Shown in pieces: positions 2,556 through 42,325 of a stretch of 42,325 nucleotides of DNA. Each line of letters starts with the position of its first letter. Position 1 is the first letter of the stretch. The DNA is taken from IMG/VR virus record IMGVR_UViG_3300045911_000095, positions 1 to 42,325 of that record. One strand, given 5' to 3'. The notes under the pieces are model-generated. The model saw nothing but the letters and a program-made list of their open reading frames with translations, was not told the DNA's origin and searched no databases. The DNA is from a virus. Its lineage: Duplodnaviria > Caudoviricetes. Both the position numbers and the translations under genes were made by a program.

Positions 2556-2697
2556 CGTTCTCACCTCCAAGATCTTTGGCGGAGAGCGGGCCACTGCCCG
2601 CGCAATTAGTCGCTTGCAAGATATGCCGCGAGACGCTATTGATCCCGCCGACCTGTGTGCGCAGGCTGATGCAATTTTGCAACAAGGAGGCCGCTAA
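2548..2697 (+). CDS. Short ORF at the i-spanin (Rz) position, lacking a TM anchor
   Basis: AAGGAG RBS at 2535-2540, ATG at 2548, 49 aa MFSVLTSKIFGGERATARA..., coupled to the lipoprotein gene by TAATG. Confidence 0.45.
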   Translation: MFSVLTSKIFGGERATARAISRLQDMPRDAIDPADLCAQADAILQQGGR

Positions 2698-3005
2698 TGC
2701 CCCCCGTAAAAACGCTCTCGACGGCCCTGTTTTTGCTTTTGGCTACCCCACTAGCCCAAGGGTGCAAAACAGCGTCGGAGACGCCTCTGAGCCGCCTCGA
2801 CGTGCAGGTGGTGGGGGTAAGTATGCCCGTACCCTGCCCAGCCCTTAGCAGCCTTGGCCCTGAGCCGGTTTATCCCGACACGGATGAAGCCATTCGCTCT
2901 GCGCGCAATGTTGCGGAGCGGGTGCTGCTCTACGCTGCTGGTCGCGTGTTGCGCATACAGCGCCTGAACGAATACCAGACTGCGGCAAAAGCCTGTGATT
3001 TTTAG
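2697..3005 (+). CDS. Putative o-spanin (Rz1-like) lipoprotein
   Basis: Signal peptide with lipobox LAQG-C, Pro-rich PVPCP..GPEP, C-terminal Cys; lies in the lysis cassette. Confidence 0.7.
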   Translation: MPPVKTLSTALFLLLATPLAQGCKTASETPLSRLDVQVVGVSMPVPCPALSSLGPEPVYPDTDEAIRSARNVAERVLLYAAGRVLRIQRLNEYQTAAKACDF

Positions 3006-3013
3006 GACTAAGC

Positions 3014-3391
3014 ATGACCGTCGATCAAATGGCTCATCCTGAGACTACGTCCGCGCCCATAACAACCGCTGCGCAGATAAGGCAGGCTGAACTGATAGCT
3101 TTGCAGCAGATTGTCAATACTCTGAACACGATGACGAGCGACATGGCTACGCATCGTGAGAAAATGAACACGATGGTCATTGACATCGCTCTTATCAAGG
3201 AGCGCCAGACCAATCAAGCCGGTCAGTCTTTGGTGATTGAAGAGTTGCGTTCTCGCATCGAAATACTGGAGTCGCGACGGCACCAACAGGACGGAGCCGC
3301 GTCATTCGCCCGATGGCTGAAAGACTTTGGCCCGTGGGTCATTGCCGGTGCCGCCGCGCTCTGGACTTACGTGAAATCCCTAACGCCCTAA
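3014..3391 (+). CDS. Coiled-coil protein with C-terminal TM helix (holin/lysis accessory-like)
   Basis: AGGA RBS; heptad-like pattern followed by hydrophobic FGPWVIAGAAALWTYV. Confidence 0.55.
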   Translation: MTVDQMAHPETTSAPITTAAQIRQAELIALQQIVNTLNTMTSDMATHREKMNTMVIDIALIKERQTNQAGQSLVIEELRSRIEILESRRHQQDGAASFARWLKDFGPWVIAGAAALWTYVKSLTP

Positions 3392-3741
3392 GCGTCTTCC
3401 TGCTCAGCGATGAGCTGCTCCAGTTCGATGCGCGCTTGGCGGTAGCGACCCATCACAATTAGACTGATGATGAACCCGTCGCGAGTATTAAGCTGAGACG
3501 TGTATTTCCAAAGATGCTGAGAAGCATCAGGATTGACAGGAACTTCAAGCTCAATGATCTTTTCCACGTAGTGGAGTGCCTTCTTCAAGTCCTCCACGCC
3601 ATTCTTCTTGCGCCATCGCGAAATGTATTTGGTGGCGTTGCCCACGTGGTAGCCGAGACCGGAGTCATGAACCCAGTCCCAATGTTCGTACTGCATTTTC
3701 TTGTAGTGAGTTCCGCCGTGCTGTTTGCTGTTCGCACTCAT
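3388..3741 (-). CDS. DUF3310 protein (T7 gp1.7 nucleotide kinase-like)
   Basis: QHGGTHY...GNATKYISRWRKKNGVEDLKKALHY signature. Confidence 0.85.
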   Translation of the reverse strand: MSANSKQHGGTHYKKMQYEHWDWVHDSGLGYHVGNATKYISRWRKKNGVEDLKKALHYVEKIIELEVPVNPDASQHLWKYTSQLNTRDGFIISLIVMGRYRQARIELEQLIAEQEDA

Positions 3742-4310
3742 ATGAGCCTCCTTGTTGCTTCGTAAAGAACCTGCTGAAACCGACCCTTTACGGGGCAGTA
3801 GTCGGGATCGTCCATGTCATCCGAGGCTTCGATAGTTTCAAGAATATCTCGCACATATCCAAGAAAAACTTGACCGATTTGACGCATCGGCAAATTTCCG
3901 CGCTGATACTCATCTCCACAGTAGAGCGCCCCTTCCAAGCTGTCAGCTAGGTTTAGCCAAGTGCGCTCTTCTTCTGACAGTCGCCTTTCGTAGAAGGTAA
4001 GCCCAGCATTCTCTATGATGTTCTGCTCCGCCCTTTGCACCTGCTCGCGCAGACCCGGAATCTTGCGCTTGAATGGGGCCGGTATGTCGCCAGTCTCTTG
4101 CTCCGGAAGATCGTGCTGCAACGCGGCCAGGATTAGTTCCTTGGTGATCGTGTCTTCGCCAACACAGGTGACAAGCAACGCCAAGACGTTGAAGGTGTGA
4201 TGCCCCACCGTGTTTTCTTTGAGAACATCGAAGAGGTGAAACCGCTTGACGACACCCCCTCGCCGATAAAACGTGAGGGCTCTCAGAATTTCAGAGCGAC
4301 TTTTCATCAT
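3738..4310 (-). CDS. HD-domain 5'-deoxynucleotidase / dNTP phosphohydrolase (YfbR-like)
   Basis: VKRFH..ENTVGHH, ALQHDLPE..TGDIPAP, LADSLE motifs. Confidence 0.85.
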   Translation of the reverse strand: MMKSRSEILRALTFYRRGGVVKRFHLFDVLKENTVGHHTFNVLALLVTCVGEDTITKELILAALQHDLPEQETGDIPAPFKRKIPGLREQVQRAEQNIIENAGLTFYERRLSEEERTWLNLADSLEGALYCGDEYQRGNLPMRQIGQVFLGYVRDILETIEASDDMDDPDYCPVKGRFQQVLYEATRRLI

Positions 4311-5319
4311 GTGTCTTCTTCCTTCTCATAATCCAGTTTCGTGCATCCTGCCGCCAGTCCCAGCCGAGGTCCGTCTCGGGTTCTTTCAGCGCGGCCAACG
4401 CGGCGGGGTAATCCTTGGCCTTGTGGTGAGCCCATGCCCGTAACATAGGCTCAACTGTGCTGATGAAAAAGGGGTGAAAAAATTCTTTTGTCTCTCCATT
4501 CTTGACCAGATCGATACAGTCACTTTCGAACATATTCGGTTTTCCATCAATCATGCCGCGCGGTTTGTGAGAGTGTCCAAGATAGAAGTTTGAACTATCT
4601 ACATCGATGCGAACTTTCCGAGACGGGTACTTCAAGACATTATCGTAGAGGTGATAGTTGTTGCTGAACTGGATCATTTCTCCAACCAGCAACCTCAGTC
4701 GTTCTGCCATGTACTCTTGCAGAACGCTGAAGTGAACAGCGTTTGCTCCATGCGCGCCCCACAGAATATCGTTGCTCCGACACAGTACGGTCATGTGCAG
4801 CCGATCTTTGACGATACGGAAGTAGACGTGGGTATTGCATGGTACGTCAGTAGTTCCACGCGCAACCGCGCCCAAGTCCCCGAAGCCTGACGGCCCGCCG
4901 TCCCACATTGTCAGAACAGCGCGTCGCGAATTGGGGTCTTTGGTAAGCTGATCCACAATCGTCTCCAACTGATCGTATTCAAAGTAGTGTCTCCATCTGT
5001 AGCCGTAGGCTCCCGGCTGAGTAGTGCCCCCATCATCGGAGAAGTTGGCCATGCGCTTGTTGAATTGGCTGAGCCACTCTAGGTCATTGGAACCGGCCAG
5101 CATCCATAGGCTCTCGAATAGATGAAAGAATGGATTGGCGTCTCGCAAGGGGCTGAACAGCACCCGCTCCATCGGCCGTTCGGTAACAGTCACTACGGGG
5201 CCGGGAGCAACTGTGACCGGCCCGTTGCGGCTCGTCTCTTTGACCCCGTATTTCTCCAGATAGTACAGCCCGCTTGCCAGCGCGTCGTTGACATTGCGAA
5301 CTTGCATTACATGAATCAT
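4291..5319 (-). CDS. Thymidylate synthase-family enzyme, probable dUMP hydroxymethylase
   Basis: RDANPFF..ESLWML, AYGYRW, SRRAV, catalytic PCN, RSNDILWGAHGAN (Asn at the dUMP-specificity position), NNYHLY; start placed at MIHVMQ after GGAG. Confidence 0.85.
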   Translation of the reverse strand: MIHVMQVRNVNDALASGLYYLEKYGVKETSRNGPVTVAPGPVVTVTERPMERVLFSPLRDANPFFHLFESLWMLAGSNDLEWLSQFNKRMANFSDDGGTTQPGAYGYRWRHYFEYDQLETIVDQLTKDPNSRRAVLTMWDGGPSGFGDLGAVARGTTDVPCNTHVYFRIVKDRLHMTVLCRSNDILWGAHGANAVHFSVLQEYMAERLRLLVGEMIQFSNNYHLYDNVLKYPSRKVRIDVDSSNFYLGHSHKPRGMIDGKPNMFESDCIDLVKNGETKEFFHPFFISTVEPMLRAWAHHKAKDYPAALAALKEPETDLGWDWRQDARNWIMRRKKTHDEKSL

Positions 5320-5320
5320 G

Positions 5321-6304
5321 TTACTTCTCCCATTCACGTTTTACAGGCGGAGTCAAAGGTTTCTTGGACGCCTGCTCATCCAAGAATTTCTTACCAGCAG
5401 GTGTCGGCTTGGGCAGCTTGTCGCGCCCGAACTTGTCTGGCAGCAGGCCGACACGGTAGCTCGTTGCATCGCAGCCCGCGCATGGGCCGAAGTCACGCAA
5501 TCCGAGGATCAAACGCTTGCGCGCTTCGTCCATCACTCTGCCGTGCCATATGTCCATCAGTCCGACTTTGTGAATGTTACCGGTGGCCAGCTCTCCCCGC
5601 CAGTCGTTGCAGCAGATGGCCGTGGAACCGTCCCACCTAAAACTCAGCTCGCGGAAGGGCTTGGCGCAGGGCTTCCCCTGCCCCGCGTCGCTTTTGGGGG
5701 CACCCGCCCCCGCGTGATTGTTCAGCGTGGCGTGAGTGCCCTCCGTATTGGCGTCGATGGGGCGTATATGCACTAGCCGCCGCGCGCTAGGCTTTTGCCT
5801 TGCGTGAGGGTTGCCCAGCGGGTCGTCGGGATACACGTAGAACTCGAAGCCGCGCTCACTTTTGGGTACAGAAGAAAGTTCGGCGTTGATGGCTGCAAGG
5901 ATCTTGGGAACGAGGTTGACGTTCTGGTATTCATCCAGCCCAAGCGTGTTCAGACCCGCGTTGAATAGCGCGCGTATTCTTTCCAAGCCCTTTGGCCCTT
6001 GCAATCCTCCGCCATTGGAGAGCATCAGCATACTGGCACGGGGCAGATGCTTGCGAAAGATAGCGATGATCTTTGCTGCGTCGGGATGCAGGGATGGCTC
6101 GCCGTGCATTGCGAACTCAATGCGGCTGTTCCACCTGTGGCGCGCCAGTTCACTAGCGATGCGTTCGGCGGTCTTGGCCGTCATGAACTTGTATGTCCGC
6201 TCTTTGCCGCGAATTCCGTTGATGCCGCAGAAAGAGCAGCGAAGGTTGCACCCCTCCACCAGTTCTATCTGAACTGCGAACGGTGGCTCTTGTCTGTAGA
6301 CCAT
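5321..6304 (-). CDS. Radical SAM enzyme with C-terminal SPASM/Twitch domain
   Basis: CNLRCSFC (CxxxCxxC), HGEPSLHP, SNG; C-terminal CAKPF..ICCNDW..GN..CAGCD. Confidence 0.9.
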   Translation of the reverse strand: MVYRQEPPFAVQIELVEGCNLRCSFCGINGIRGKERTYKFMTAKTAERIASELARHRWNSRIEFAMHGEPSLHPDAAKIIAIFRKHLPRASMLMLSNGGGLQGPKGLERIRALFNAGLNTLGLDEYQNVNLVPKILAAINAELSSVPKSERGFEFYVYPDDPLGNPHARQKPSARRLVHIRPIDANTEGTHATLNNHAGAGAPKSDAGQGKPCAKPFRELSFRWDGSTAICCNDWRGELATGNIHKVGLMDIWHGRVMDEARKRLILGLRDFGPCAGCDATSYRVGLLPDKFGRDKLPKPTPAGKKFLDEQASKKPLTPPVKREWEK

Positions 6305-7150: not shown

Positions 7151-7921
7151 TTAGAGCCTCCCCGATTGATAGGCTTTCTTCCAGCTGATTCGCACGTCTT
7201 CACGCTCGGCCCACGCATCGCCGCTCTTGGCTTGCTTCTTGACCACAGTCACGAATTTCGGGTGCAACTTGGCCAGCCCCCGCGCGCCTTTGGACTGCAC
7301 TTCCATGGAGCGATAGGTGGAGCAGCCCCCTGGAGCGTTGCTACGCCCTTGATCTTGACACCAACGGTTCAGAGTGACGCTTTCATAGCCGAGTCGCAGA
7401 AGCTGAAGCGCGACGTCAAAATCTTCCATGACTGGTAGACGATCGAACCGAACGCCCTCTCTCTTCAGAATATCGGCGTTGTATCCCAACGCGCGCAGAC
7501 ACCGCGTATTACGAATGAAGTAATCGTCGGGGTTACGGTTAGCGCCTTCTCTTACTGCGATGGACGCATGAGCATAAGTCTTGAGTATGCTCTCCATAGC
7601 TTTCAGCATCAGCGTTACATCGGTCGCGTCGGCCCTCTGCAGAAGTTGGGGGTTGTCCTTTCGCCGCACGAAGAAGCTCAGGTCGTCGTCCAGCATCAGC
7701 ACCGGCCCTTCACTTATGTCGATTATGTGCTGGCGAACTTTGCCGATGCCTTTGACGTCGACGACGTAAAGTGCTTCTTTCCCGAAGCGAGCGGCATAAG
7801 GTTTGAAGTCTTTCGCTCCGATGACCATTTTCGTGCGCGCCCGCGCAGCGGGAGGAAGATGGTCGATTGTGTGATGTGCTTGATCTGCCCTGCCAAGGCT
7901 TGGAATGAATATCTGCATCAT
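7151..7921 (-). CDS. TET/JBP-associated (GREB1/base-J GT-like) GT-A fold glycosyltransferase
   Basis: IFIPSLGRA, GIGKVRQHI, LMLDDD (DxD), MEDFDVALQLLRLGY, SNAPGGCS; GGAG RBS before MMQIF. Confidence 0.75.
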   Translation of the reverse strand: MMQIFIPSLGRADQAHHTIDHLPPAARARTKMVIGAKDFKPYAARFGKEALYVVDVKGIGKVRQHIIDISEGPVLMLDDDLSFFVRRKDNPQLLQRADATDVTLMLKAMESILKTYAHASIAVREGANRNPDDYFIRNTRCLRALGYNADILKREGVRFDRLPVMEDFDVALQLLRLGYESVTLNRWCQDQGRSNAPGGCSTYRSMEVQSKGARGLAKLHPKFVTVVKKQAKSGDAWAEREDVRISWKKAYQSGRL

Positions 7922-7994: not shown

Positions 7995-8687
7995 TTACCC
8001 GATGGCGATGAAGCCCTTGTCAGCGGCCCACTTGAAGTCCAGCCGACGGTCGCCGTACTCGGCGTCATTGGCGAGGGCTTCGCGCGCAGCCGCCGAGGTC
8101 TTGTACGACATGATGATCTCGACCATCCGGCCCGTCCACGAGCCGGCCCGCACCTTTTCAGCCGCCTCCTTCGGCGTCATCAGATGCTTGTACGTGAAGT
8201 CCGCGGCGACGCGGCCACGACCCGAGCCGGTCTTCTCCTTGGCTGGCGCGTTGCCCTTCGTCGCAGCGGCGGGCTTCTTGGCGGGGGTGCCGGTCTTGGT
8301 CTTGAGCTTCTCTGCCATGATATTGTACTCCTCTTCTGTTATGGTGATATGTTCACCGACTAAACGTACTGCTTCGGGGGTTGCTCCCTCGGTCAGCATT
8401 TGTACCTTTAGCTCCTCTAATGCTGACTGTAAAGAACAATTTTCGTCCAAAGTGTAGTTTTTCATCTGCCAGTTGGGAATGATGCGATCACGCACTCCCA
8501 ATTGGCTAGGAATGTTGACCACCCGCTGAACCGCCAAGGTGCCCTCAAACGTAGGGGCTAGCATAAATACCCTGCCAAACTGCCCTCCGATGGCCGTAGC
8601 AGGGTCTCTGGCCACACAGGGAACAAAGCCGGTAGGCCACCAGCTAGGCAAGGGCGGCGGCGTCTCAGGAGCTTTACGCTTGGGCAT
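7995..8687 (-). CDS. Hypothetical protein; C-terminal paralogous 'RxGxWT/DFxWxxxK' domain; likely internal start at 8318
   Basis: Coupled to the helicase stop (TAATG); internal GAGGAG-9nt-ATG at 8318 followed by a K/A/P-rich linker and the conserved domain. Confidence 0.65.
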   Translation of the reverse strand: MPKRKAPETPPPLPSWWPTGFVPCVARDPATAIGGQFGRVFMLAPTFEGTLAVQRVVNIPSQLGVRDRIIPNWQMKNYTLDENCSLQSALEELKVQMLTEGATPEAVRLVGEHITITEEEYNIMAEKLKTKTGTPAKKPAAATKGNAPAKEKTGSGRGRVAADFTYKHLMTPKEAAEKVRAGSWTGRMVEIIMSYKTSAAAREALANDAEYGDRRLDFKWAADKGFIAIG

Positions 8688-21533: not shown

Positions 21534-21929
21534 TCAGATGAAACGAATGTAGTTCTGTTTGTCGGCCAGCCACTTCCAGTCGATAGACCGTTCGCGGTAT
21601 TGCGGATAGTTGTCGAGAAGCCACCGTTCAGCTTCGAGAGTATTGGTGTTCGTAATGGCAGCAGTGACCATCACGGCTGTCCAAGTTCCCGAACGATGAC
21701 GGCGATCGGCCGAATAATCGACGATCTCGTAGGTTGCGCCGCGCCGCTTGGTTCTGCGCCTAGGCGCGGGCGCGGGCGCGGGCGTAGGGGTCGGAGTGAG
21801 ATACTGAAAGCGCGGCGAATCGTTAGGTAAGCGCTCCTTCGGCGCGCGAGTTTCGACCTTGTCGGTCGACTGGAGTAGTTCAAGTAGAACCTTCACTTCT
21901 CCAGGATCAATGAATTTGGTTACTTCCAC
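21534..21929 (-). CDS. Hypothetical protein; paralogous C-terminal domain
   Basis: AAGGAG RBS, GTG start; PTPAPAPAP linker then RSGTWT..MV...IDWKWLADKQNYI. Confidence 0.7.
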   Translation of the reverse strand: MEVTKFIDPGEVKVLLELLQSTDKVETRAPKERLPNDSPRFQYLTPTPTPAPAPAPRRRTKRRGATYEIVDYSADRRHRSGTWTAVMVTAAITNTNTLEAERWLLDNYPQYRERSIDWKWLADKQNYIRFI

Positions 21930-21967: not shown

Positions 21968-22585
21968 TCAATTTTTATTGATGAAATCTCCCCACTGCCT
22001 GGCCATCGCATCGGCGATTCCTTGGTATGTTTTGGAGCGCAGCTTCCAGCGATCAGCGGACGGACCCAAGTAATGAAGACGCTGGCGTTGATTGTCGGGG
22101 AGCGATTTCGTTTCCGCCTTCAGGTCGCTCGTCGGCTTCAGCGGGGGTAAACCCCGCAGCCACAAGCACGTCGCTTTTTGCTCCAAATGCCCGAACTGAT
22201 AGGGCTGGATTGTCTGCGCTTGCTGTAGACCACCGATGCGTTCCTTGGCGTATTTGTGCATGATTGGATTCTCGATGGCGACCGCCTTGATGGGCGCATC
22301 CCAAAGCGCGCGGAAAAACGCGGCGGCTTCGTCCAACTTTGCCCATCTGGTCGGGTCTTTATGCAAATGGCACACGCCGCTGTTTGTCATGTATGTGCAT
22401 GGCGGGTGGGCGATCATAATATCCCAATCGCCACGATAGGCGATTTCCAGCGCGTCGCCTTGTATATGCCAGCGCGGGTCACCATCAGTCGGCAACAGGT
22501 CGCACGACCACGCATCAAACCCACGGGCACGGAACGCATCTCTGACAGTGGCGCTGTATTCACAGGCAACCAGAATGCGTTTCAT
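21968..22585 (-). CDS. Phage C5-cytosine DNA methyltransferase-like protein
   Basis: LVACEYS, WSCD, AHPPCT (catalytic PC), IENP, QP.QFGH, K.TCLW, RSKTY.GIA.AMA.QWG. Confidence 0.75.
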   Translation of the reverse strand: MKRILVACEYSATVRDAFRARGFDAWSCDLLPTDGDPRWHIQGDALEIAYRGDWDIMIAHPPCTYMTNSGVCHLHKDPTRWAKLDEAAAFFRALWDAPIKAVAIENPIMHKYAKERIGGLQQAQTIQPYQFGHLEQKATCLWLRGLPPLKPTSDLKAETKSLPDNQRQRLHYLGPSADRWKLRSKTYQGIADAMARQWGDFINKN

Positions 22586-22604
22586 CGCTTGTATCCTTTC
22601 AAAT

Positions 22605-22661
22605 TATAACGGGGGTGAGGCAACCCGCCCCCGTTATAGTGCCAATTTTGCCGAGCCGCTA
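22605..22661 (-). promoter_or_regulatory. Putative promoter whose -10 lies in an 11-bp inverted repeat
   Basis: TATAACGGGGG...CCCCCGTTATA (22605-22638); minus strand TAGCGG-17nt-TATAAC. Confidence 0.4.
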
Positions 22662-22883
22662 GGGCAGCGGGCGCGGGTTATCGACGATATCCAGAATGAC
22701 GTCGGTGTAGCCCAGAATTCCGTTCCATGTGAGATACACGTCCAGAATTTCGCGGCGCGTCATGAGCAGAGCCATCTTGTGGCCGATGCCGTTCTCGCTC
22801 AGTGCCTCAGCCACTGGCGGAATGTATCCTGCCGCGATGAGTTCGTTGTAGAGATCTTGTGCTACTTCACCTTGTTCGATCAT
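22659..22883 (-). CDS. Hypothetical early protein
   Basis: TAAGGAG RBS before MIEQGE. Confidence 0.6.
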   Translation of the reverse strand: MIEQGEVAQDLYNELIAAGYIPPVAEALSENGIGHKMALLMTRREILDVYLTWNGILGYTDVILDIVDNPRPLP

Positions 22884-22896
22884 GTTATGTTGCTCC

Positions 22897-23193
22897 TTAG
22901 CTAATGGCTTGACTGATGAACTCGACAGTCTCTTCGTAGTCGCTGCGAATGGCAGGCGGAACCGGCCAACGTTCAATCAGCCGAGCCATCGGGTTCGTCC
23001 AGCCGAGCTTCGCGGCAATGGCTTGCTGCATCTCGCCACTGGCGGCTTCCCAGTGAACAGCGGAACGACGCAGAGCATCGGCGTTAGCCGTTCGTGCCGC
23101 AATGTTGTCAGCCACCAGTTGATTCACCCATGCCAGCGTGGCAGGGCAGTCCATGCCGATAGTGGCAACGATGATTTCACGATAAAGTTCCAT
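22897..23193 (-). CDS. Hypothetical early protein
   Basis: AAGGAG RBS within the repeated leader. Confidence 0.65.
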   Translation of the reverse strand: MELYREIIVATIGMDCPATLAWVNQLVADNIAARTANADALRRSAVHWEAASGEMQQAIAAKLGWTNPMARLIERWPVPPAIRSDYEETVEFISQAIS

Positions 23194-23197
23194 ATTT

Positions 23198-23624
23198 GTG
23201 TTACTCCTTGTGATAGGGCATGAGCGCCCATCGTTGTCCCCTGCCGGTTAGGGCAGGGGACTCGGGGGAACTCTAGTCCATGCGGCTCACTTCAAACGAA
23301 CCGTCCGGCTGAACTACGCAGACGATCGCGTAGGCGTGAACAGTGACGAGTTCATCGCCGATGCGAACGCTTGCCAGCGTCGGCAGAGCGGGGTCGCCCG
23401 GATACTTCAGCGCTCCGGTCGAAGGGTTGCGTTTCCACTTGCCCTTGCCATAGGGCGACCAGCCGCCTCCATGCGCGTAACGCTCTTGAACTTGTTCCGC
23501 CACGGGGCGGTCGTCCAGTGAGCGAGGCAGAATGATGAACGGTATCGCACCGAGATGGTCGAGAGTGCCCCCGCTGTACATATTCCATACGCCTTCCATT
23601 TCGTGTTACTCCTTGTGATAGGGC
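23198..23624 (-). repeat. 22-bp direct repeat (GCCCTATCACAAGGAGTAACAC) in two structured leaders
   Basis: Identical copies at 23198-23219 and 23603-23624, each containing the RBS and preceded by similar hairpins. Confidence 0.9.
23273..23599 (-). CDS. Hypothetical early protein
   Basis: AAGGAG RBS; YAHGGGW, YPGDP, SFEVSRMD. Confidence 0.7.
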   Translation of the reverse strand: MEGVWNMYSGGTLDHLGAIPFIILPRSLDDRPVAEQVQERYAHGGGWSPYGKGKWKRNPSTGALKYPGDPALPTLASVRIGDELVTVHAYAIVCVVQPDGSFEVSRMD

Positions 23625-23720
23625 GACATTGCCCATCCTCGCCCCCGCCAGCCAGGCTGGCAGGGGTCCGGGGGGAAATGTTGCCCCTGCCAGCGGGCTA
23701 GGCTGGCAGGGGCGCATTGG

Positions 23721-24206
23721 TTAGTTCAGGAACTGGATGAAGCCCTTCTTGGCGGCCCAGTTGAAATCCAGCGGCTTGGGGTTGCCGTTGGGGAACCTGT
23801 AGCTACGTTCACGTTCGGCGCGCGTAGCTTCGGTTGCCTTGGCCGTGGAAGTGTGCCGCAGGATCTGCTCCACCATGTAGGTCGTCCAGGTGCCCGGCCG
23901 AACCTTCGTTTCGGCGAAGGTCATGAGAGCCTTGTACTTGCGGTCCCCGTTGGGGGCAGGCTTGGCCGGTTTGGCCGGTTGCGCCTTGCCCTTGGCCGGT
24001 TGCGCCTTGCCCTTGGCCGGTTGCGCCTTGCCCTTGGCGTCGGCGACAGCCTTGGCCGAATTGGGCGCGTTCTTGGCGGTCACGCCGGTTGCCAGCTTGG
24101 GGCGCGGCTTGGGAGCGACACCCGTAAGGGTGATCTTCCTGACCGTACGCTTGCCGTTGGCGTCCGTGGTGACTTCCAGGGCGGTGGACGTGGTAGCATT
24201 TTCCAT
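23721..24206 (-). CDS. Basic early protein; K/A/P repeat linker + paralogous C-terminal domain
   Basis: AAGGAG RBS before MENATT; (AKGKAQP)x3; RPGTWT.YMV...LDFNWAAKKGFI. Confidence 0.75.
   Translation of the reverse strand: MENATTSTALEVTTDANGKRTVRKITLTGVAPKPRPKLATGVTAKNAPNSAKAVADAKGKAQPAKGKAQPAKGKAQPAKPAKPAPNGDRKYKALMTFAETKVRPGTWTTYMVEQILRHTSTAKATEATRAERERSYRFPNGNPKPLDFNWAAKKGFIQFLN
23971..24033. repeat. 21-bp tandem repeat x3 (coding AKGKAQP)
   Basis: TTGGCCGGTTGCGCCTTGCCC repeated three times. Confidence 0.9.
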
Positions 24207-24242
24207 GTTAGTTCTCCTTGCATATGCAAAGCACACCATGCG

Positions 24243-24283
24243 CCTTGCCCTATGCCCCCGTGGCGCAGGGGCATAGGGCAAGG
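24243..24283. repeat. Perfect 16-bp inverted repeat
   Basis: CCTTGCCCTATGCCCC-9nt-GGGGCATAGGGCAAGG. Confidence 0.9.
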
Positions 24284-24923
24284 GGGCGCAGGCAAGCCCG
24301 CGCCCCGCTGTGCTGTGCAAGGGTAGTAACACTAACGGCTAGCCTGCCACCTGCATTTATACACTATGCGCCGCTGGCAAAGCCTGACGCACGTGGGCTA
24401 AACCGCCGCTTGGCCTATTGGCCAAGGTTGCCCCCGCTAACACGGGTTGGGGGCCGTTAGCCTTGGCACCATTGCAGGGGTACCGCGCCCTAGGTGCCAA
24501 GGTACTTGCCGCAGGCCAGCCGTACTGCCTTAAGCCTGCCGCCGCGCCGCGCGCGGGCTTTGTGTAACCCCTTACCTATGCGGGGTACCGGCCCCGCGCC
24601 GTGCCGCCCCCTGGCGGCAACCCATACATAGCAGGCAATTCGTAAATAAAAAGTTAAAAATGCGAAAAAATTTCGCGCCGTAAAGCCCGTGCCGTTTTGG
24701 CACAGCGCCAATTTTGTTGCCAAACGTCCTTGCCGCGCCGCGTAGTTTGGCACGGGACTTGCAACGCGCAGGCGCATCGGGCAGGGGCAAACCGGCATTT
24801 CCCCGTCAGGCTCGTTTTAAGCGAAACTGAAGCGAAAGTTCGGGGCTTGGCACCCCTAATACCCTGAACCCCCTTACACGCATTATTTGACTTTTGGCAC
24901 AGTTCTTGCATAGAAAAACGCGG

Positions 24924-25313
24924 TTAACATTTCGTAACCGAAATTTCCACTGCCCCGTTGTCAGTGTCTACGGTTGCGGCCCACTGCCCCGCGCGGCTTA
25001 GCGTCACTTGCAGGCTGGCAAGGCTAGGCGCGCGGCGGGGCGCGCCCAGGGCGGCTAGCACCCGCTGTAGTTGTGCATGGGCCGCGCGCGCCCCCAGCAC
25101 AGTAACCGCGCCTTGCCCCGTTGCCGCGACTTTGTACGTGGTGGACGGGGCGCGGCCGGGTTTCCCATAGCGTTTATTGTTAAGAATTGCTTGGGAATGG
25201 GCGGTTAACGCATCGTTTATTTGCTTGGCGGCGGCGTTGCGCGCGGCTTGGTCGCCATGCAGCAAGGCGTCGCGGGCTTGGGTTAAAAGCGCGTTTAGAA
25301 ATACAGTTAGCAT
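24924..25313 (-). CDS. Hypothetical basic protein, first leftward gene
   Basis: GAGG RBS before MLTVFLN; lies in the GA/TC-poor region. Confidence 0.55.
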   Translation of the reverse strand: MLTVFLNALLTQARDALLHGDQAARNAAAKQINDALTAHSQAILNNKRYGKPGRAPSTTYKVAATGQGAVTVLGARAAHAQLQRVLAALGAPRRAPSLASLQVTLSRAGQWAATVDTDNGAVEISVTKC

Positions 25314-25413
25314 AGTTGTAACCTCTAAGCGGTTGAAAAAAGCCACATTTACACTTTACAAAAACTGCGCCCTAACCTTTATATACCCCCAGTATACTTG
25401 TAAACCCTATTCA

Positions 25414-25428
25414 TTAACTATCTATTAA
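25414..25428. promoter_or_regulatory. CtrA-type box TTAA-N7-TTAA
   Basis: TTAA CTATCTA TTAA upstream of the leftward gene 24924..25313. Confidence 0.5.
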
Positions 25429-25629
25429 TATTCATTAAGTTTCTACCAACTGGTAAAGGGGTAGGGTTAATGTGTAAAGTGTAAATCTTTGCCGCTTAAC
25501 CGCTTGTTATTGTTGCGTTCCTCCCCCGCTGAGACGCACAGATGCGCAGGGGTTTGGGGCCTGAACCTGCCTAACCCCTTGGTAACTATGGCAAAAGAAG
25601 TGTAAAGGAATTTGGTTAATTTGTCCCCC

Positions 25630-25659
25630 TTGTCACGTTAATCACTTCGCTGCTATACC
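25630..25659 (+). promoter_or_regulatory. Putative rightward (late/packaging) sigma70-type promoter
   Basis: TTGTCA-18nt-TATACC with a GC prefix on the -10. Confidence 0.45.
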
Positions 25660-25713
25660 TGCGCCGTCCCCTTGCCCGAAGCCAGCTTTGCGAAAGAGAG
25701 GTAAACGTTCGTA

Positions 25714-25809
25714 GTTACGAAGTCCCTAAGAGACTTGGTTAACGAGAAGTTACGAAGTTCGGTTACGAAGTCCCTAAGAGACATAGTTAACGGGAAGTTA
25801 AGAGATATG
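25714..25809. repeat. Imperfect 48-bp tandem repeat containing CtrA-type boxes
   Basis: GTTACGAAGTCCCTAAGAGAC at 25714 and 25762; TTAA-N7-TTAC at 25739 and TTAA-N7-TTAA at 25787. Confidence 0.8.
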
Positions 25810-25847
25810 GTTAACGTCGAGCCGGAATTCGTTAACTATGATCGGAT

Positions 25848-25893
25848 CGACGGGGCGACCGGGCGACGGGGCGACGGGGCGGCGGGGCGACGG
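25848..25893. repeat. G-rich octamer tandem repeat (CGACGGGG)n
   Basis: cgacggggcgaccgggcgacggggcgacggggcggcggggcgacgg. Confidence 0.8.
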
Positions 25894-26031
25894 ATCGTCG
25901 GATCGACGCGGCGACGGGGGCGGGTGACGGGGGTACCTGCGGGGCGAGGGCGGTGTCGCCTAGCTAATAGCGACCCCCAGAACCGCAGCACGAAATTCTG
26001 AAAGTCATTATACCGAATAAGGAGAACCGAA

Positions 26032-26571
26032 GTGGCACGGCCCAAGAAGAAATACACAGATGCAGTTCTTCGAGAGCGCCACGAACGCGCATTGGCCAAG
26101 CGTCGTGAAAACGCCGCGCGCAAGAAAACTCTGGCGATGGCGGCAAAGGCCGCAGAAGGACAAGCAGACTTCGACGCCCTCATAGCCGCCGAAAAGGCGC
26201 GGCAGAGCGAAGCGCAGGCGCTCAGTGACAAGCGGAGGAATGGTGGTCTTGCCTCTCCAAAAGTCACAGCCAAAGCTCGCGACGATCTGGCCCTTGCTTT
26301 CGAACTCATGGGCGGAGTTCCGGCGCTGGTTGTGTGGGGCCGCGCCAACCCTACGGAATTCTACCGCATCTGGTCGCGCCTTATTCCCAAGCCGGTGGAG
26401 GATGCCAGCCACGCCCTTCCCCTCGAAACCCTGCTGGAGAAGCTGGCCTCCCGCGAAGCGTTGTCGGTGCGTGAGGCCGCTATTCAAGTCGGCGAAGAAC
26501 TTCTGGAAGAAGGTCGCTTGGCCGCAGAAGCCGAAGATGTTGCTGCTGCTACGAAGTTCACAATCAACTAG
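26032..26571 (+). CDS. Putative terminase small subunit
   Basis: TAAGGAG RBS; AFELMGGVPALVVWGRANPTEFYRIWSRLIP motif; first late gene, upstream of TerL. Confidence 0.55.
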   Translation: MARPKKKYTDAVLRERHERALAKRRENAARKKTLAMAAKAAEGQADFDALIAAEKARQSEAQALSDKRRNGGLASPKVTAKARDDLALAFELMGGVPALVVWGRANPTEFYRIWSRLIPKPVEDASHALPLETLLEKLASREALSVREAAIQVGEELLEEGRLAAEAEDVAAATKFTIN

Positions 26572-26906: not shown

Positions 26907-28490
26907 GTGACTGAGCAAGAGCAGCTACTGATGCTTGCGAAGCTGCGAAGTTCGTTCCCGGACTACGCAGAAACGTGCCTGAAGATCAAGACGAAGTCAG
27001 GAGCGCTGATTCCATTCAAGCTGAACTATGCGCAGCAGCGAGTTCATCAGATCATCGAGGAGCAGCGCAGGCGCACAGGCAAGGTTCGCGTTCTGATTCT
27101 CAAGGCGCGGCAGCAGGGCTTCTCCACTTACGTCGCCGCGCGGTTCTATCATCGCGCCAGTTTGAATCACGGGGTCAGCGTTTTCATTCTTACCCATGAG
27201 CAGGCTGCGACCGACAACCTGTTCACGATGGTGGCGCGGTTTCATGAACACAATCCGCTGAAACCTCGCACCGGCGCGGCCAATGCCAAGGAGCTCATCT
27301 TCAGCAAGTTGGACAGCGGTTACTCTGTCGCCACGGCGGGCCAGAAGGCAGTCGGCCGCTCCAAGACGGTGCAACTCTTCCACGGCTCGGAAGTTGCCTT
27401 CTGGCCCAACGCATCGGAGCACTTTGCGGGAGTGATGCAGGCTATTCCAGACCTCGAAGGATCTGAAGTGATCTTGGAGAGCACTGCCAACGGCATTTCC
27501 GGCGAGTTCTACGAGCGTTGGCAGCAGGCCGAGGCAGGAATTGGTGACTATATTCCCATCTTCAGCCCGTGGTTCTGGGAACAGGGCTATCGACGCAAGG
27601 TTCCGCCCGGATTTAAGCTGCGTCGCGACAAGATGCCGGGAGAAGTGGTCAGTGAAGCTGAGTATGCGGAGATCTACGGACTTTCTCTGGAGCAGATGTG
27701 CTGGCGGCGCGCCAAGATTGTGGAGTTGAAAGACCCCATTCTCTTCATGCAGGAATACCCTGCGTCGGCTGAAGAGGCATTTCAGGCTGCTGGGCATGAC
27801 AGCTATATTCGCGGAGAGCTTGTTCTCAAGGCTCGTAAGAACAACATCGTCGATCCGGCAGGGCCGCTGATCATCGGAGTAGATCCGAGCCGTTTTGGTG
27901 ACGACCAATTTGCGATTGTCTGGCGAAAAGGGCGTAAAATCCTCAAACATCGGCTTATCGACAAGGTCGACGCGGTGACTGCCGCCAACATTCTCAAGCA
28001 AATCTTCGATGAAGACGATCCTGACCGTATGTTCATCGATGCGGGCGGTATTGGCGGGCCTGTCGTGGACATGGTCAAGTCATTTGGCCGAAAATACGAC
28101 GTCCGCACGGTCGGTGTCAACTTCGGCGGTGAGCCACAGGAGCCGGAAATCAAGCTCGACGACGGAACTTTGCGTCCTGGCCCCAAGAACAGGCGCGCTG
28201 AGATGTGGATGCGCTCCAAAGAGTGGCTCCAAGATCCGTTGGGCGTGGATATTCCGGATTTTGGAATGTATCAGTCGGACGCCATTGGCCCGAAATACAA
28301 GTATGACATGAACCAGAGGCTCGTTCTGGAGTCCAAGGCCGATATGCGCAAGCGCGGCGTTCGCAGCCCTGATCTGTGGGACGCCGTAGCCCTCACTTTC
28401 GCGGAGCCGGTGTATGTCAAGCGTGAAGATGAGCGTCGAATACGCCAAACTTCGTTGGTTTCGCAGCTGAGTGATGGGTGGATGGTATGA
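26907..28490 (+). CDS. terL: Terminase large subunit
   Basis: LKARQQGFST (Walker A), FHGSEVAFW, ESTANG, nuclease GVDPSRFGDD, IDAGGIG, SPDLWDA. Confidence 0.93.
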   Translation: MTEQEQLLMLAKLRSSFPDYAETCLKIKTKSGALIPFKLNYAQQRVHQIIEEQRRRTGKVRVLILKARQQGFSTYVAARFYHRASLNHGVSVFILTHEQAATDNLFTMVARFHEHNPLKPRTGAANAKELIFSKLDSGYSVATAGQKAVGRSKTVQLFHGSEVAFWPNASEHFAGVMQAIPDLEGSEVILESTANGISGEFYERWQQAEAGIGDYIPIFSPWFWEQGYRRKVPPGFKLRRDKMPGEVVSEAEYAEIYGLSLEQMCWRRAKIVELKDPILFMQEYPASAEEAFQAAGHDSYIRGELVLKARKNNIVDPAGPLIIGVDPSRFGDDQFAIVWRKGRKILKHRLIDKVDAVTAANILKQIFDEDDPDRMFIDAGGIGGPVVDMVKSFGRKYDVRTVGVNFGGEPQEPEIKLDDGTLRPGPKNRRAEMWMRSKEWLQDPLGVDIPDFGMYQSDAIGPKYKYDMNQRLVLESKADMRKRGVRSPDLWDAVALTFAEPVYVKREDERRIRQTSLVSQLSDGWMV

Positions 28491-39284: not shown

Positions 39285-41144
39285 ATGGGCGTCGTTCAGA
39301 ATATTATTGGGATTGTTCGCGATATCAACGAACGCAAAGAAGATGCGCGCATCAAGAATGCTCTGCGCAACAATCTCAATAATCTTGATCTGGGTATTGA
39401 AGAGATCATGCAGATCAACCCGTATAAGGGGATGGCACTTGAGGATGACCTCTTCAAGCGCCGCAAGCAAGAGGTTGAGCTGCAAGATTCTCGCGATCAG
39501 GCGATCATTGATCGTCTTGGTGTTGCAACGAAGTATCTGCGCGGAGTTCCGTTGGAAAAGCGCGCGGAAGTGATGGAGAGTTACGCGCCTTTGTTTCACG
39601 AATTGATCGGCCCAGACAACTACGACGCATTCAAGAAGGCTGCGCTGTCTGATCCGAACTATCTGGCGGCAGTGGATGACAACACGTTCCGCGAGATGTT
39701 CAAGAACGCGAATGAGATGCGGACGGTTACGCCAGGATCGGTCGTTCTGCGTGGCGGGCAGCCGATTTTCCGCAACCCACACAAGGCTATTGTGGCGAAT
39801 ACTCCACAGGGTGCAATCCAACGCGTCTTCGATCCGAATACTGGCGAGTATATGGACGAAGATGCCGCTGAGTATAGATCGTCGGTAGATGGAACGGCCC
39901 CTGTCGCAGGGCAGGGGTTCAGGTTGACTGTGGACGCTGTTCGCCCGCACATCGTTCAGCAAGAAAGCGGTGGTGATTATACGGCAGTCAATCCTACGAG
40001 TGGCGCGCTTGGCGCGTATCAGGTGATGCCTGCCACTGGCAAGGCTCTTGCTGAGCGCCTTGGCTTGCCTTGGCGTCCGGACATGATGCGCAGCGACGAC
40101 CCCGCCAGCGTCCGATATCAAGATGCTATCGGGAGCGCAGCCATTGCAGAAGCCATCGACGCCAGCGGTGGAGATCCGCGCATGATGGCGATGTACTACT
40201 ACGGTGGAGCTGATCGCAACAAGTGGGGACCGCGGACTAATCAGTACGCTGATGAAGTAGTGACGCGGCTCGGCGGCGGGCAAGCCCAGAGCGCGACACA
40301 GCCGATTCTTGGCAGTCGCACGACAATCAATCCGAAGACCAGCGTGCCGACTACTCCGGGCCGTATTCTGTCTCCCGAAGAAGCGGAGGCTCTCGGCTTT
40401 AGTCCGGGAACCGTCGTTCAGCAGGATGGTAAGGGTTACAAGGTTCTTCAGGCTCCTCCCAAGTCGGCGGCTGCCAGCGCAACAGCCCAAAAAGCTGAAG
40501 AGATGCGACGGAATGCGCAGCGCGTGTTGAATTCGACGCTTGGCTCTCTCGCTAATAACTACGTCGAACTTTTCAGCATGGGAGCCGCGACCAGCAGTTC
40601 GCGCTCTCCCGCTCAGAATGCTTTGGCGCGGCTGGGATCCAGCAGCGTGGGACAATTTGTTGGAGAAACTATCGGTACAGAGGCTCAAACCATTCGTCAA
40701 ACAATCCGCAACGCTTCTCCGATATTGTTGAATACGATACGGCAAGCTGCGGAAATGGGCGTCCGCGGTATGGACTCCAACAAAGAACTGGAGTTCTACG
40801 CTCAGGCAGTTGGTGACGTTTCCAAGCCGATTGAGGCGAACCTTGCTGCACTTGTTGTCCTGGACATGGCTTACGGGTCTCAGACCGGTGACGCTATTCT
40901 GCGTCAGCTTCCTCCGTCTCTGCGCCCGCGTGTGGAGAAGCAGATCGACATCATCATGCAGCGCGACGGCATCAGGTTCGGTAAGCCAGGAGAAGGTCTG
41001 TATAAAGACAGAACTGGCGGTCTCCAAAGACTTGGCACTGGTCAAGCGGAAGAGCAAGACATTCCGATTGGAACTATCATTCGCAACCCAAGAACCGGAC
41101 AGCGCAAGCGCAAGACCGCTTCTGGATGGGAGGACGTCAAGTGA
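39285..41144 (+). CDS. Ejection protein with lytic transglycosylase (SLT-like) domain
   Basis: IVQQESGG, GALGAYQVMPATG, YYGG, T.QY..V; TAAGGAG RBS. Confidence 0.8.
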   Translation: MGVVQNIIGIVRDINERKEDARIKNALRNNLNNLDLGIEEIMQINPYKGMALEDDLFKRRKQEVELQDSRDQAIIDRLGVATKYLRGVPLEKRAEVMESYAPLFHELIGPDNYDAFKKAALSDPNYLAAVDDNTFREMFKNANEMRTVTPGSVVLRGGQPIFRNPHKAIVANTPQGAIQRVFDPNTGEYMDEDAAEYRSSVDGTAPVAGQGFRLTVDAVRPHIVQQESGGDYTAVNPTSGALGAYQVMPATGKALAERLGLPWRPDMMRSDDPASVRYQDAIGSAAIAEAIDASGGDPRMMAMYYYGGADRNKWGPRTNQYADEVVTRLGGGQAQSATQPILGSRTTINPKTSVPTTPGRILSPEEAEALGFSPGTVVQQDGKGYKVLQAPPKSAAASATAQKAEEMRRNAQRVLNSTLGSLANNYVELFSMGAATSSSRSPAQNALARLGSSSVGQFVGETIGTEAQTIRQTIRNASPILLNTIRQAAEMGVRGMDSNKELEFYAQAVGDVSKPIEANLAALVVLDMAYGSQTGDAILRQLPPSLRPRVEKQIDIIMQRDGIRFGKPGEGLYKDRTGGLQRLGTGQAEEQDIPIGTIIRNPRTGQRKRKTASGWEDVK

Positions 41145-42325
41145 GCACCAGAACCCGCATCCCTGATGGCTTCGAGATTGAGCGGCTTCCCGAGCCTAAG
41201 CCTACGAATGCTCCTCTCGGTGCCAGTGACCTTCCAGAAGGTTACGAAATCGAAGATTATACGAGCGACATTCTGAAGTCTAGCGTCACTGACTACGGCG
41301 ATCCGTCGAAGATGACGGCTGAGCAGATCAAAGCTCAGATCGCAAAGCAGCGTGAAGATGGCCTGACTGATCTCGATATAGAACAGTGGCTCCAGCAGTG
41401 GGGTCGTTATCCCGACATCAGTCTGCGAGATTACTTGGCAGACCCTACCGGCAAAGATCTCGAGATTACTCCGGACTACGACATCGGCCCGCTCGACGCT
41501 GCATGGTCTGGACTGAAGAGCGCCGCACTTCGTGGATGGGATGACGAATGGCAGGCCGGATGGGGTGCTGTGGGCAACAAGCTCGGCACTGTCCTCGGTC
41601 TGAATGAGAGCACCGCAGACTTTGCAGATATCTACGAAGCTCTGCTGGCCCAGAACCGCGATTACAAAGATCAAGCGTGGGACAAGCAACCGCTAGCCTA
41701 CGGCTTGGGCTTTGTGCCCGGAGCGTTTCTGGGGCCGTCGTATGCGGCTCTCTCACGCGCGCAAGGGCCTTTGGGCAGGGTTGGCGGGGCCGCAGCCATC
41801 GGAGGCATCGAAGGGGCTGTAAGCGGCGCAGGTAATGCTGAAGGGGGCCTTAGCAACCGCCTACTCGACGCCGCCGTTGGTGGTGGAACGGGGGCTGTTC
41901 TTTCCCCGTTGATGCTTCCCGCTGCCAACTTAGCGGGCGGGTTGATTGACAGCGGCATCAATTCTGCTCGTCGTTTGCTTGGCCGTGAGAATGCGCTCAA
42001 CACTGGCCTTGAGGCGTTGGTGCGACGCGCCCCGCAGAATGCCGACGCTATGAATGCTCGTCTGGCTGAGATGGATGCTGCCAACGTGCCCGCTCGTCTT
42101 GTCGACCTAGTGGATGAGAGTGGTCGCGGCGTCATACGTTCGGTCGGGAGCAAAATGACCCCCGCTCGTGAAGAACTTGCTCGCGCGGCTGATGACGTCT
42201 ACATCAATGCTCAGAACCGCATTGCGCAGCAGGCTCGGGACAATATCAGCGATTCGCCACTTACCTCCAGAGAAATTGCGCGCGATATCGAGCAGCAGCG
42301 CAGCAATCTCGGACCTGAATTTCGC
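41141..42325 (+). CDS. N-terminal part of large ejection protein (3' partial; absent from the ORF track)
   Basis: GTG overlaps the previous stop; frame read by hand and open for 395 codons to the window end (MSTRTRIPDGFEIERLP...GWDDEWQAG...NLGPEFR); Gly/Ala-rich membrane-like segment. Confidence 0.8.
   Translation, partial: MSTRTRIPDGFEIERLPEPKPTNAPLGASDLPEGYEIEDYTSDILKSSVTDYGDPSKMTAEQIKAQIAKQREDGLTDLDIEQWLQQWGRYPDISLRDYLADPTGKDLEITPDYDIGPLDAAWSGLKSAALRGWDDEWQAGWGAVGNKLGTVLGLNESTADFADIYEALLAQNRDYKDQAWDKQPLAYGLGFVPGAFLGPSYAALSRAQGPLGRVGGAAAIGGIEGAVSGAGNAEGGLSNRLLDAAVGGGTGAVLSPLMLPAANLAGGLIDSGINSARRLLGRENALNTGLEALVRRAPQNADAMNARLAEMDAANVPARLVDLVDESGRGVIRSVGSKMTPAREELARAADDVYINAQNRIAQQARDNISDSPLTSREIARDIEQQRSNLGPEFR

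Follow-up and report, generated by a model that had tools for sequence, protein, structure and literature searches.

The genome analysed here (the window, a whole record of 42,325 nucleotides that is 98% complete and whose ends do not overlap) contains a 1303-nt segment (24216-25518), with a tail to ~25620, in which the dinucleotide GA and its complement TC occur only 40 times. We favor the explanation, at a probability of about 0.57, that the T of 5'-TC is glycosylated genome-wide and that the first promoter and gene unit has been selected to lack this target on account of the host RNA polymerase. The initial annotation of this sequence had proposed TC modification together with an early region selected to stay unmodified, and the proposal gains support from a survey in which genomes lacking the modification genes have no comparable desert, and from the sparing of restriction sites containing TC. 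Among the uses that might need clean DNA (transcription, origin or genome end), we infer that it is the start of transcription.

The depletion is local, with a genome-wide GA/TC odds ratio of 1.11 (a slight enrichment) set against it in a sliding-window and dinucleotide analysis. The hand counts of the initial annotation are exact: 24217-24639 contains one GA and no TC against 47.8 expected from local composition, 24217-25620 contains 22 GA and 26 TC (48 against 172.6), and a typical line, 27001-27060, contains 12. The complementary steps are equally lost, so that both strands are depleted, and TG and CA are not avoided (odds 1.04 and 0.95), also as noted there. The two longest GA/TC-free gaps span 254 nt (24386-24640) and 171 nt (24215-24386); the expected number of gaps that long is ~4e-13 for GA/TC and at least 7e-4 for each other dinucleotide class (nine). 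The left edge coincides with the Shine-Dalgarno sequence of the gene starting at 24206 (sites 24213 and 24215), and the depletion is graded, with an observed/expected ratio of 0.09 in 24208-24670, then 0.48, 0.33 and 0.40 rightward, and a return to 1.13 in 25621-26031. The remaining sites are mostly TTC/GAA (0.69, versus 0.08-0.27 for CTC, ATC and GTC). An assembly artefact is unlikely because separately assembled contigs from public runs match the pieces 24009-24836, 24892-25250 and 25221-25540 with 5, 0 and 0 differences; these runs are from hot springs and microbial mats, one may be the source sample, and no contig spans the whole desert.

The window has the layout of a P22-like podovirus. 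Its + strand carries the portal, coat and ejection genes, beginning at 26032, and its - strand those for replication and modification together with small early genes, from 25313 down to 3388; the desert is the zone where these arms diverge (Table 1). There is no RNA polymerase gene among the 51 window proteins scanned. The leader of ~450 nt downstream of the desert gene folds better than its shuffles (z -4.0), ends at the next gene's Shine-Dalgarno sequence, and matches no Rfam family at gathering score, with only chance-level microRNA matches. A sigma-70 promoter scan of 22500-26200 returned 0 sites. The inverted repeats at 25347-25486 are candidates for a promoter/operator, origin or terminus element, and similar boxes align in clade members both with and without the glycosyltransferase TAGT. 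The desert-gene proteins match no Pfam, PHROG or NCBIfam family above cut-off and have no usable Atlas match. A model of the window protein (pLDDT 80, pTM 0.51) has only generic helical-hairpin structural matches (Z at most 6.2), and a winged-helix comparison of the desert protein of the relative G028 (model pLDDT 66) gives a best Z of 3.8 with an rmsd of 3.1 over 75 aligned residues.

Table 1. Features of the modification cluster and of the desert region in the window.
Feature	Coordinates	Strand	Remarks
HD/YfbR-like nucleotidase (3738-4310) and DUF3310 (3388-3741)	3388..4310	-	Gene order as in PaMx11 and M6
Thymidylate-synthase homologue, predicted dUMP hydroxymethylase	4291..5319	-	Uracil-type Asn205
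Radical SAM/SPASM protein	5321..6304	-	No match in 50,697 deposited phage records; 1595 metagenomic relatives
PF18723 helical domain alone, without P-loop kinase PF18748	6307..7149	-	Profile search
TAGT, GT-A glycosyltransferase (PF20691, E 1.2e-18)	7151..7921	-	R..DDD..EDF motif
Second leftward gene, 161 aa, Lys/Ala-rich repeats	23721..24206	-	GA/TC 41 vs 50, z -2.2 (mild deficit)
Desert core	24216..24639	-	Non-coding leader between desert gene and gene starting at 24206; one site, 24386
Perfect 16-bp hairpin	24243..24283		Directly upstream of ribosome-binding site of 23721-24206 gene
Desert gene, 129 aa, basic, 6 Asp/Glu	24924..25313	-	First leftward-arm gene; clade-conserved
14-bp inverted repeat pair (25347-25360 / 25473-25486)	25347..25486		Flanks AT-rich spacer upstream of desert gene
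GA/TC-rich repeats (48-nt pair, 8-nt tandem array)	25714..25935		Between desert and rightward packaging genes
Probable small terminase (terS)	26032..26571	+	Position before terL, no family match; GA/TC normal
Large terminase (terL)	26907..28490	+	P22-like head module starts here

Elsewhere in the genome, 47-nt leaders with a hairpin and ribosome-binding site are repeated before consecutive early genes (23195-23241 and 23600-23646) and are possible processing or operator sites. Three leftward genes (7995-8687, 21534-21929 and 23721-24206) appear to share a C-terminal domain ending LDF/IDW-x-W-x-A-x-K-x-x-I; tblastn links the 23721 and 7995 genes, and relatives have the same three-gene set. The ends of the record divide the large ejection protein into two parts (41126-42325 and 2-1792, +), and its residues ~296-358 weakly match an ADP-ribosyltransferase (PF03496, E 4e-5, at cut-off), which recalls the injected Alt protein of T4. 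This domain was rejected as a general read-through device, not having been found in six clade relatives, with one match in G017. A C5-methyltransferase-like gene (21968-22585, -, PHROG 757) is present in the window alone among the fetched contigs and was on that ground discarded as the cause of the desert; public-run contigs there show much raised depth and joints, which suggests a mobile piece. The lipoprotein-like lysis gene on the holin side (2697-3005, +), which is not early, has 24 GA/TC sites against 37.

Non-coding DNA and synonymous positions are both affected, and the depletion is thus a constraint on DNA. With amino acids fixed and codons resampled, the desert gene has 15 GA/TC sites against 37.2+-4.0, and its z of -5.2 is the lowest of 43 window genes, followed by 2697-3005 (-3.6) and 23721-24206 (-2.2); the other early genes are normal. 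The same resampling gives 0 against 34.7 and 30.4 sites in the desert genes of the relatives G021 and G028, 2 against 24.9 and 34.7 in those of G010 and G011, and 17 against 29.6 in that of G027, with z from -5 to -8 overall. The relatives' desert genes carry 0-1 Asp or Glu (codons GAN), versus 12-13% genome-wide, serine is nearly always encoded by AGY, and the stop codons are TAA or TAG. The G021-type desert protein is a paralogue of the product of the upstream gene, which has an ordinary acidic content. In L001, whose terminase is 96% identical to that of the window, wholly different tandem repeats occupy the locus and avoid GA/TC in the same way.

The predicted modification genes lie together at the far end of the leftward arm. 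The TAGT residues R64, D79-81, E167 and D168 are invariant in 14 sequences, and its profile has 0 matches in the PDB. The nearest matches of the synthase are those of Pam3, Bordetella phage CN1, PaMx11 and M6; it is 40-44% identical to the M6, PaMx11 and Pam3 genes, shares with them the motif RSND..G...AN, and carries Asn at the position that is Asp in MilA, a CMP hydroxymethylase, which points to hmU replacing T. The initial annotation had cited M6/ViI-type phages for context dependence; the cluster does not follow their route, with neither its kinase nor its amino-acid transferase found by profile or tblastn. The P-loop 5-hmdU DNA kinase (PF18748) has 0 profile matches in the window genome in a search that was positive in G072 and G085, and tblastn with M6, PaMx11 and Pam3 queries found none there. 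The amino acid:DNA transferase PF18724 likewise has no profile match in the window in a search in which the controls were silent, and no tblastn match with three known-type queries; the M6 gene does match PF18724. A sugar on hmU is therefore the likelier chemistry, judging from gene content. No DpdA/preQ0, TET/JBP or Que gene has a Pfam or PHROG match in the 51 window proteins, and tblastn with the DpdA, FolE, QueC, QueD and QueE proteins of iggy and CAjan matches only these two phages, in a search that a very remote DpdA could escape. T is thus favored as the modified base, given a uracil-type synthase and no DpdA/preQ0 gene found. For T6-like phages, TAGT has been proposed to attach a further sugar to one already present (PMC13390438), so the chemistry here may differ in detail.

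The initial annotation's choice of TC as target receives independent support from restriction palindromes. A phage with modified TC would have no need to purge the restriction sites in which this step occurs, and the palindromes strongly avoided in the window include 0 of 16 with TC, 7 of 14 with TG and 8 of 34 others (p 0.009). Eleven control phages avoid 3-15 of the 16 TC palindromes; neither iggy nor CAjan gives a significant result (p 0.53 and 0.64). Of the 24 TAGT contigs, 23 spare TC palindromes on average, as do G044, G014, G072, G073 and G085, which have no TAGT; the TC context therefore appears not to come from TAGT. These five contigs have no desert, so that the signature does not by itself imply a desert, which, unlike the context, appears to need TAGT. 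The pattern is reversed in M6, Pam3, G009 and G012 (TG palindromes spared, TC avoided), and PaMx11 spares both. This suggests that the former four modify TG only, G009 and G012 although they belong to the TAGT/radical SAM set. The M6 kinase is reported to modify TG, with TG/TC resistance also described (PMC6449724); the M6 palindrome pattern fits the former and only partly the latter. M6 groups with Pam3 and G009 with G012 in a quick tree, and the PF18723 domain, common to these clusters, is a candidate context reader. Against the TC context, GAWTC and GGWCC, with the step inside, are under-represented across the window genome, and the palindrome test fails to reach significance in iggy and CAjan. 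TCGA is strongly avoided in G015, G020, G032, G010 and G046 (log2 O/E -1.5 to -3.2) despite their general sparing of TC palindromes.

For a comparative survey, the radical SAM and AAA genes led to 67 records, of which 39 were fetched whole or nearly whole (eight lack 0.4-6.5 kb at one end), leaving out short, duplicate and some long records; four clade relatives, M6, PaMx11, Pam3 (50 of 54.5 kb), CAjan and iggy were added. The score is the log10p of the best 400-nt GA/TC window, and a desert is called at -5 or below. The desert tracks TAGT+hmU clusters across about five unrelated backbones: it is present in 15 of 24 TAGT+hmU contigs (window included) versus 0 of 19 without TAGT (0/9 with hmU genes and 0/10 without the cluster), and at -7 or below in 10/24 versus 0/19. 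The Fisher values (1e-5 and 1e-3 respectively) are not corrected for kinship and overstate independence, because about five backbones account for the strong deserts. The count excludes four contigs that carry radical SAM and/or TAGT without PF18723; two of these have moderate deserts, G041 with the radical SAM gene alone (-6.4) and G038, in which no hmU synthase was found (-5.8). L038, a 13-kb fragment without cluster information, reaches -7.0.

That the desert should occur only in relatives with the cluster, a check proposed by the initial annotation, is borne out in one direction: all ten contigs without the cluster lack a comparable desert (best -4.6), as do all 60 terminase-upstream regions from outside the window's clade. 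The cluster is no guarantee of a desert, with none in 9 of the 24 TAGT+hmU contigs, including G009, G015, G029 and G032 at 95-100% completeness and four others at 38-80%. The terminase-upstream values come from 160 loci, 76 of which have at least 3 kb upstream and were scored: 11 clade loci (some duplicates, and most of them fragments without cluster information) range from -7.8 to -15.3, five of the kinase-type group from -3.9 to -4.8, and none of the 60 others falls below -3.6. TAGT was found in 1 of 45 terminase-locus records.

The contrasts hold within clades. In the window's clade, the window itself (-19.9) and G002 (-12.7) have TAGT and the radical SAM gene, G071 (-6.7) and G005 (-6.1) have TAGT only, and G072, G073 and G085 (-3.0 to -3.5) have a P-loop kinase in the TAGT slot. 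In a second clade, G021, G027, G028 and G046 have TAGT and a desert between terS and terL (-7.5 to -18.9); G044 and G014 carry another gene, of a weak glycosyltransferase-like family, instead of TAGT, and GA/TC at that locus is normal or raised (66 sites in the 504-nt G044 gene). Genomes with and without a desert do not form separate groups in a TAGT phylogeny. M6, PaMx11 and Pam3 have no desert, and the first two have published bulky T modifications; a combined TG+TC desert was rejected for all three, being at background level (-4.1 to -4.3 in M6 and PaMx11, and outside the top five windows of Pam3). In G021, G028, G010, G011 and G027 the desert takes in an upstream region, a gene and a short tail, and the ribosome-binding sites lack GA; G044 has such a site too, so this is not desert-specific. 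Further deserts, several per genome, occur in G010, G011 and G016, for the most part between genes or where genes begin. The main desert of G010 adjoins the modification cluster, and G010 also shows a whole gene covered down to its stop codon. Several G010 genes (L113:6644-6892, L114:5022-5262) have similar MPK(V/I)T leaders, with the first 60-80 codons in small GA/TC deserts. CC/GG deserts also occur, at contig coordinates 69761 in G038 (-9.4), 33841 in G010 (-10.7) and 24401 in G031 (-5.5); no link of these to cytosine modification is claimed. G072 (L383:10031-10663) and G085 (L387:15511-16191) have kinase, PF18723 and synthase with no TAGT or further cluster gene; their palindrome signature is of the TC type, and modification of their DNA may possibly stop at phosphomethyl-uracil.

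In the mechanism we propose, homology suggests that hmU would replace thymine before replication, and TAGT would glycosylate it afterwards, with the radical SAM enzyme perhaps altering the product; palindrome sparing points to TC and not TG as the context. The infecting genome would arrive decorated and without its own RNA polymerase, and the target would be purged from promoter, leader and first gene, with later genes tolerating modification during elongation or with the help of an early product. We place the need for clean DNA at transcription start because the deserts are units of upstream region, gene and tail that end at ribosome-binding sites or stop codons, and because in G010, G011 and G016 they recur between genes and at gene starts. 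Against this stand the desert-free TAGT+hmU contigs, the absence of a desert from M6, PaMx11 and Pam3, and the sigma-70 scan, which identified no promoter. The other early genes, normal in GA/TC, are a weak point, since they too must be read from decorated parental DNA; proximity to the terminase genes is another, leaving room for a terminus or origin role. A bolder version, possible if distinctly doubtful, is that a widespread, uncultured glycosyl-hmU pathway (synthase, PF18723, TAGT and radical SAM) decorates the T of TC so obstructively that the first gene is rewritten to avoid the step, at the cost of a product lacking Asp and Glu, that this product is a pioneer factor which lets host RNA polymerase read the decorated remainder, and that PF18723 sets the context (TC, TG or both).

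It is unlikely that, under the same TC modification, the desert instead marks a genome end, packaging start or origin kept clean for terminase or origin proteins. Its position is suggestive, 0.5-1.8 kb upstream of the probable terS in the window, between terS and terL in the second clade and upstream of terS in G011, as are the inverted boxes flanking an AT-rich spacer; the iggy desert closes its record, and this phage carries terminal repeats of 1091 bp, which may lie there. However, deserts cover whole genes to the stop codon, as in G010, where the main one adjoins the modification genes; one genome end cannot account for the several in G010, G011 and G016; and the repeats nearest terS are GA/TC-rich. 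The multiple internal deserts likewise speak against a first-injected segment lacking modified bases that evades a modification-dependent (type IV) nuclease long enough for the product of the desert gene to inhibit this enzyme, in the manner of the site-free leaders of T7 and T5. That proposal draws on the podovirus layout, with a leftward early arm beginning at the desert, and on the existence of the sugar-dependent nucleases GmrSD and BrxU (PMC13390438, PMC6449724), and it is made very improbable by desert proteins of different backbones that have no detectable homology, one of which, that of the G021 type, has a normal neighbor as its paralogue and a TC-rich counterpart in G044.

We also give little credence to modification of another base of the step, the C of TC or the G or A of GA. 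The step contains all four bases, iggy gives the same desert from G modification, the TAGT/GT-A enzymes that have been characterised take hmC or its sugar as substrate (10.1101/2023.12.21.572611, PMC13390438), and the window has its C5-methyltransferase-like gene; against these are the Asn of the synthase in the place of MilA's Asp, the lack of TET/JBP, DpdA and Que matches in the 51 proteins or by tblastn (of limited sensitivity), and the occurrence of the methyltransferase-like gene in the window only. Hardly credible is a by-product of low complexity, Ala/Lys-rich proteins, non-coding composition, local mutational bias or RNA-level constraint. The core does have GC-rich repeats and hairpins, non-coding regions of control phages reach -3.5 to -4.6, and the L001 desert consists partly of tandem repeats; yet the deficit persists under amino-acid-preserving resampling, the L001 repeats are different ones with the same avoidance, GA and TC are lost equally, and the tie to cluster genes extends across backbones. 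The compositional version of this explanation is largely refuted by resampling and survey.

Returning to the preferred reading of a TC-modified genome with a clean first unit, no published modification-free zone was found in the mostly open-access literature searched. What appears new here is a TC-only, T-based, glycosyltransferase-linked desert with within-clade contrasts and palindromes as a second line of evidence. Sequence alone thereby gives a handle on the target context of hypermodification in uncultured phages, with iggy as a published positive control; were the pioneer-factor version true, desert and palindrome sparing together would reveal modification specificity. The old question of how transcription by a host polymerase can begin on chemically armoured DNA becomes testable. 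The findings indicate a probable phage modification akin to base J, with a radical SAM partner unmatched in deposited phage records, and a DNA-chemistry constraint strong enough to strip two amino acids from a protein.

The first-entering segments of T7 and T5 are free of restriction sites. As in the window, a sequence word is purged locally from a first-acting region; their word is a host nuclease target, whereas that of the window is likely the phage's own modification target, in a segment that may or may not enter first. The DpdA-dependent dPreQ0 modifications of iggy (PMC10484667) and CAjan (PMC7544227) are described as dinucleotide-specific and post-replicative, like that proposed here, but G is modified, and no DpdA or preQ0 gene was found in the window. 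Iggy modifies about 97% of its GA sites (PMC10484667), and its last 619 nt, 60010-60628, a largely non-coding zone between divergent small-gene arms, have 14 GA/TC sites versus ~61; the CAjan desert is weaker (-5.0). Iggy thus shows that a known dinucleotide modification accompanies such a desert and, since the base is G, that a GA/TC desert alone cannot name the modified base. In the window, likewise, desert and palindromes agree with GA/TC as the target step without naming the base. The passages searched in these two papers mention neither depletion nor promoters.

M6, ViI, phiW-14 and PaMx11 have the hmU synthase, HD nucleotidase, DUF3310 and PF18723 in the order of the window, and their modifications are reported to be dinucleotide-context dependent too, with TG/TC (PMC8989533, PMC6449724). 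Their route needs the P-loop kinase and amino-acid transferase (PMC8989533); the window, lacking PF18748 and PF18724, has a GT-A glycosyltransferase and an unrelated radical SAM/SPASM protein, and its signature is TC only, with TG normal in the desert and TG palindromes avoided (a proxy). A chemical parallel is base J, a glycosyl-hmU like the product predicted for the window, and the JGT-like enzymes share the GT-A motif R..DDD..EDF with phage TAGT, the phage enzymes tested in the same work acting on hmC (10.1101/2023.12.21.572611). Base J has been linked to RNA polymerase II termination (PMC4150806), which bears on the window by analogy only. The hmU of base J comes from a JBP/TET oxidase, and that of the window would come from the nucleotide pool. 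Base J sits at few sites, and the window would be its inverse, modified everywhere save one cleared zone.
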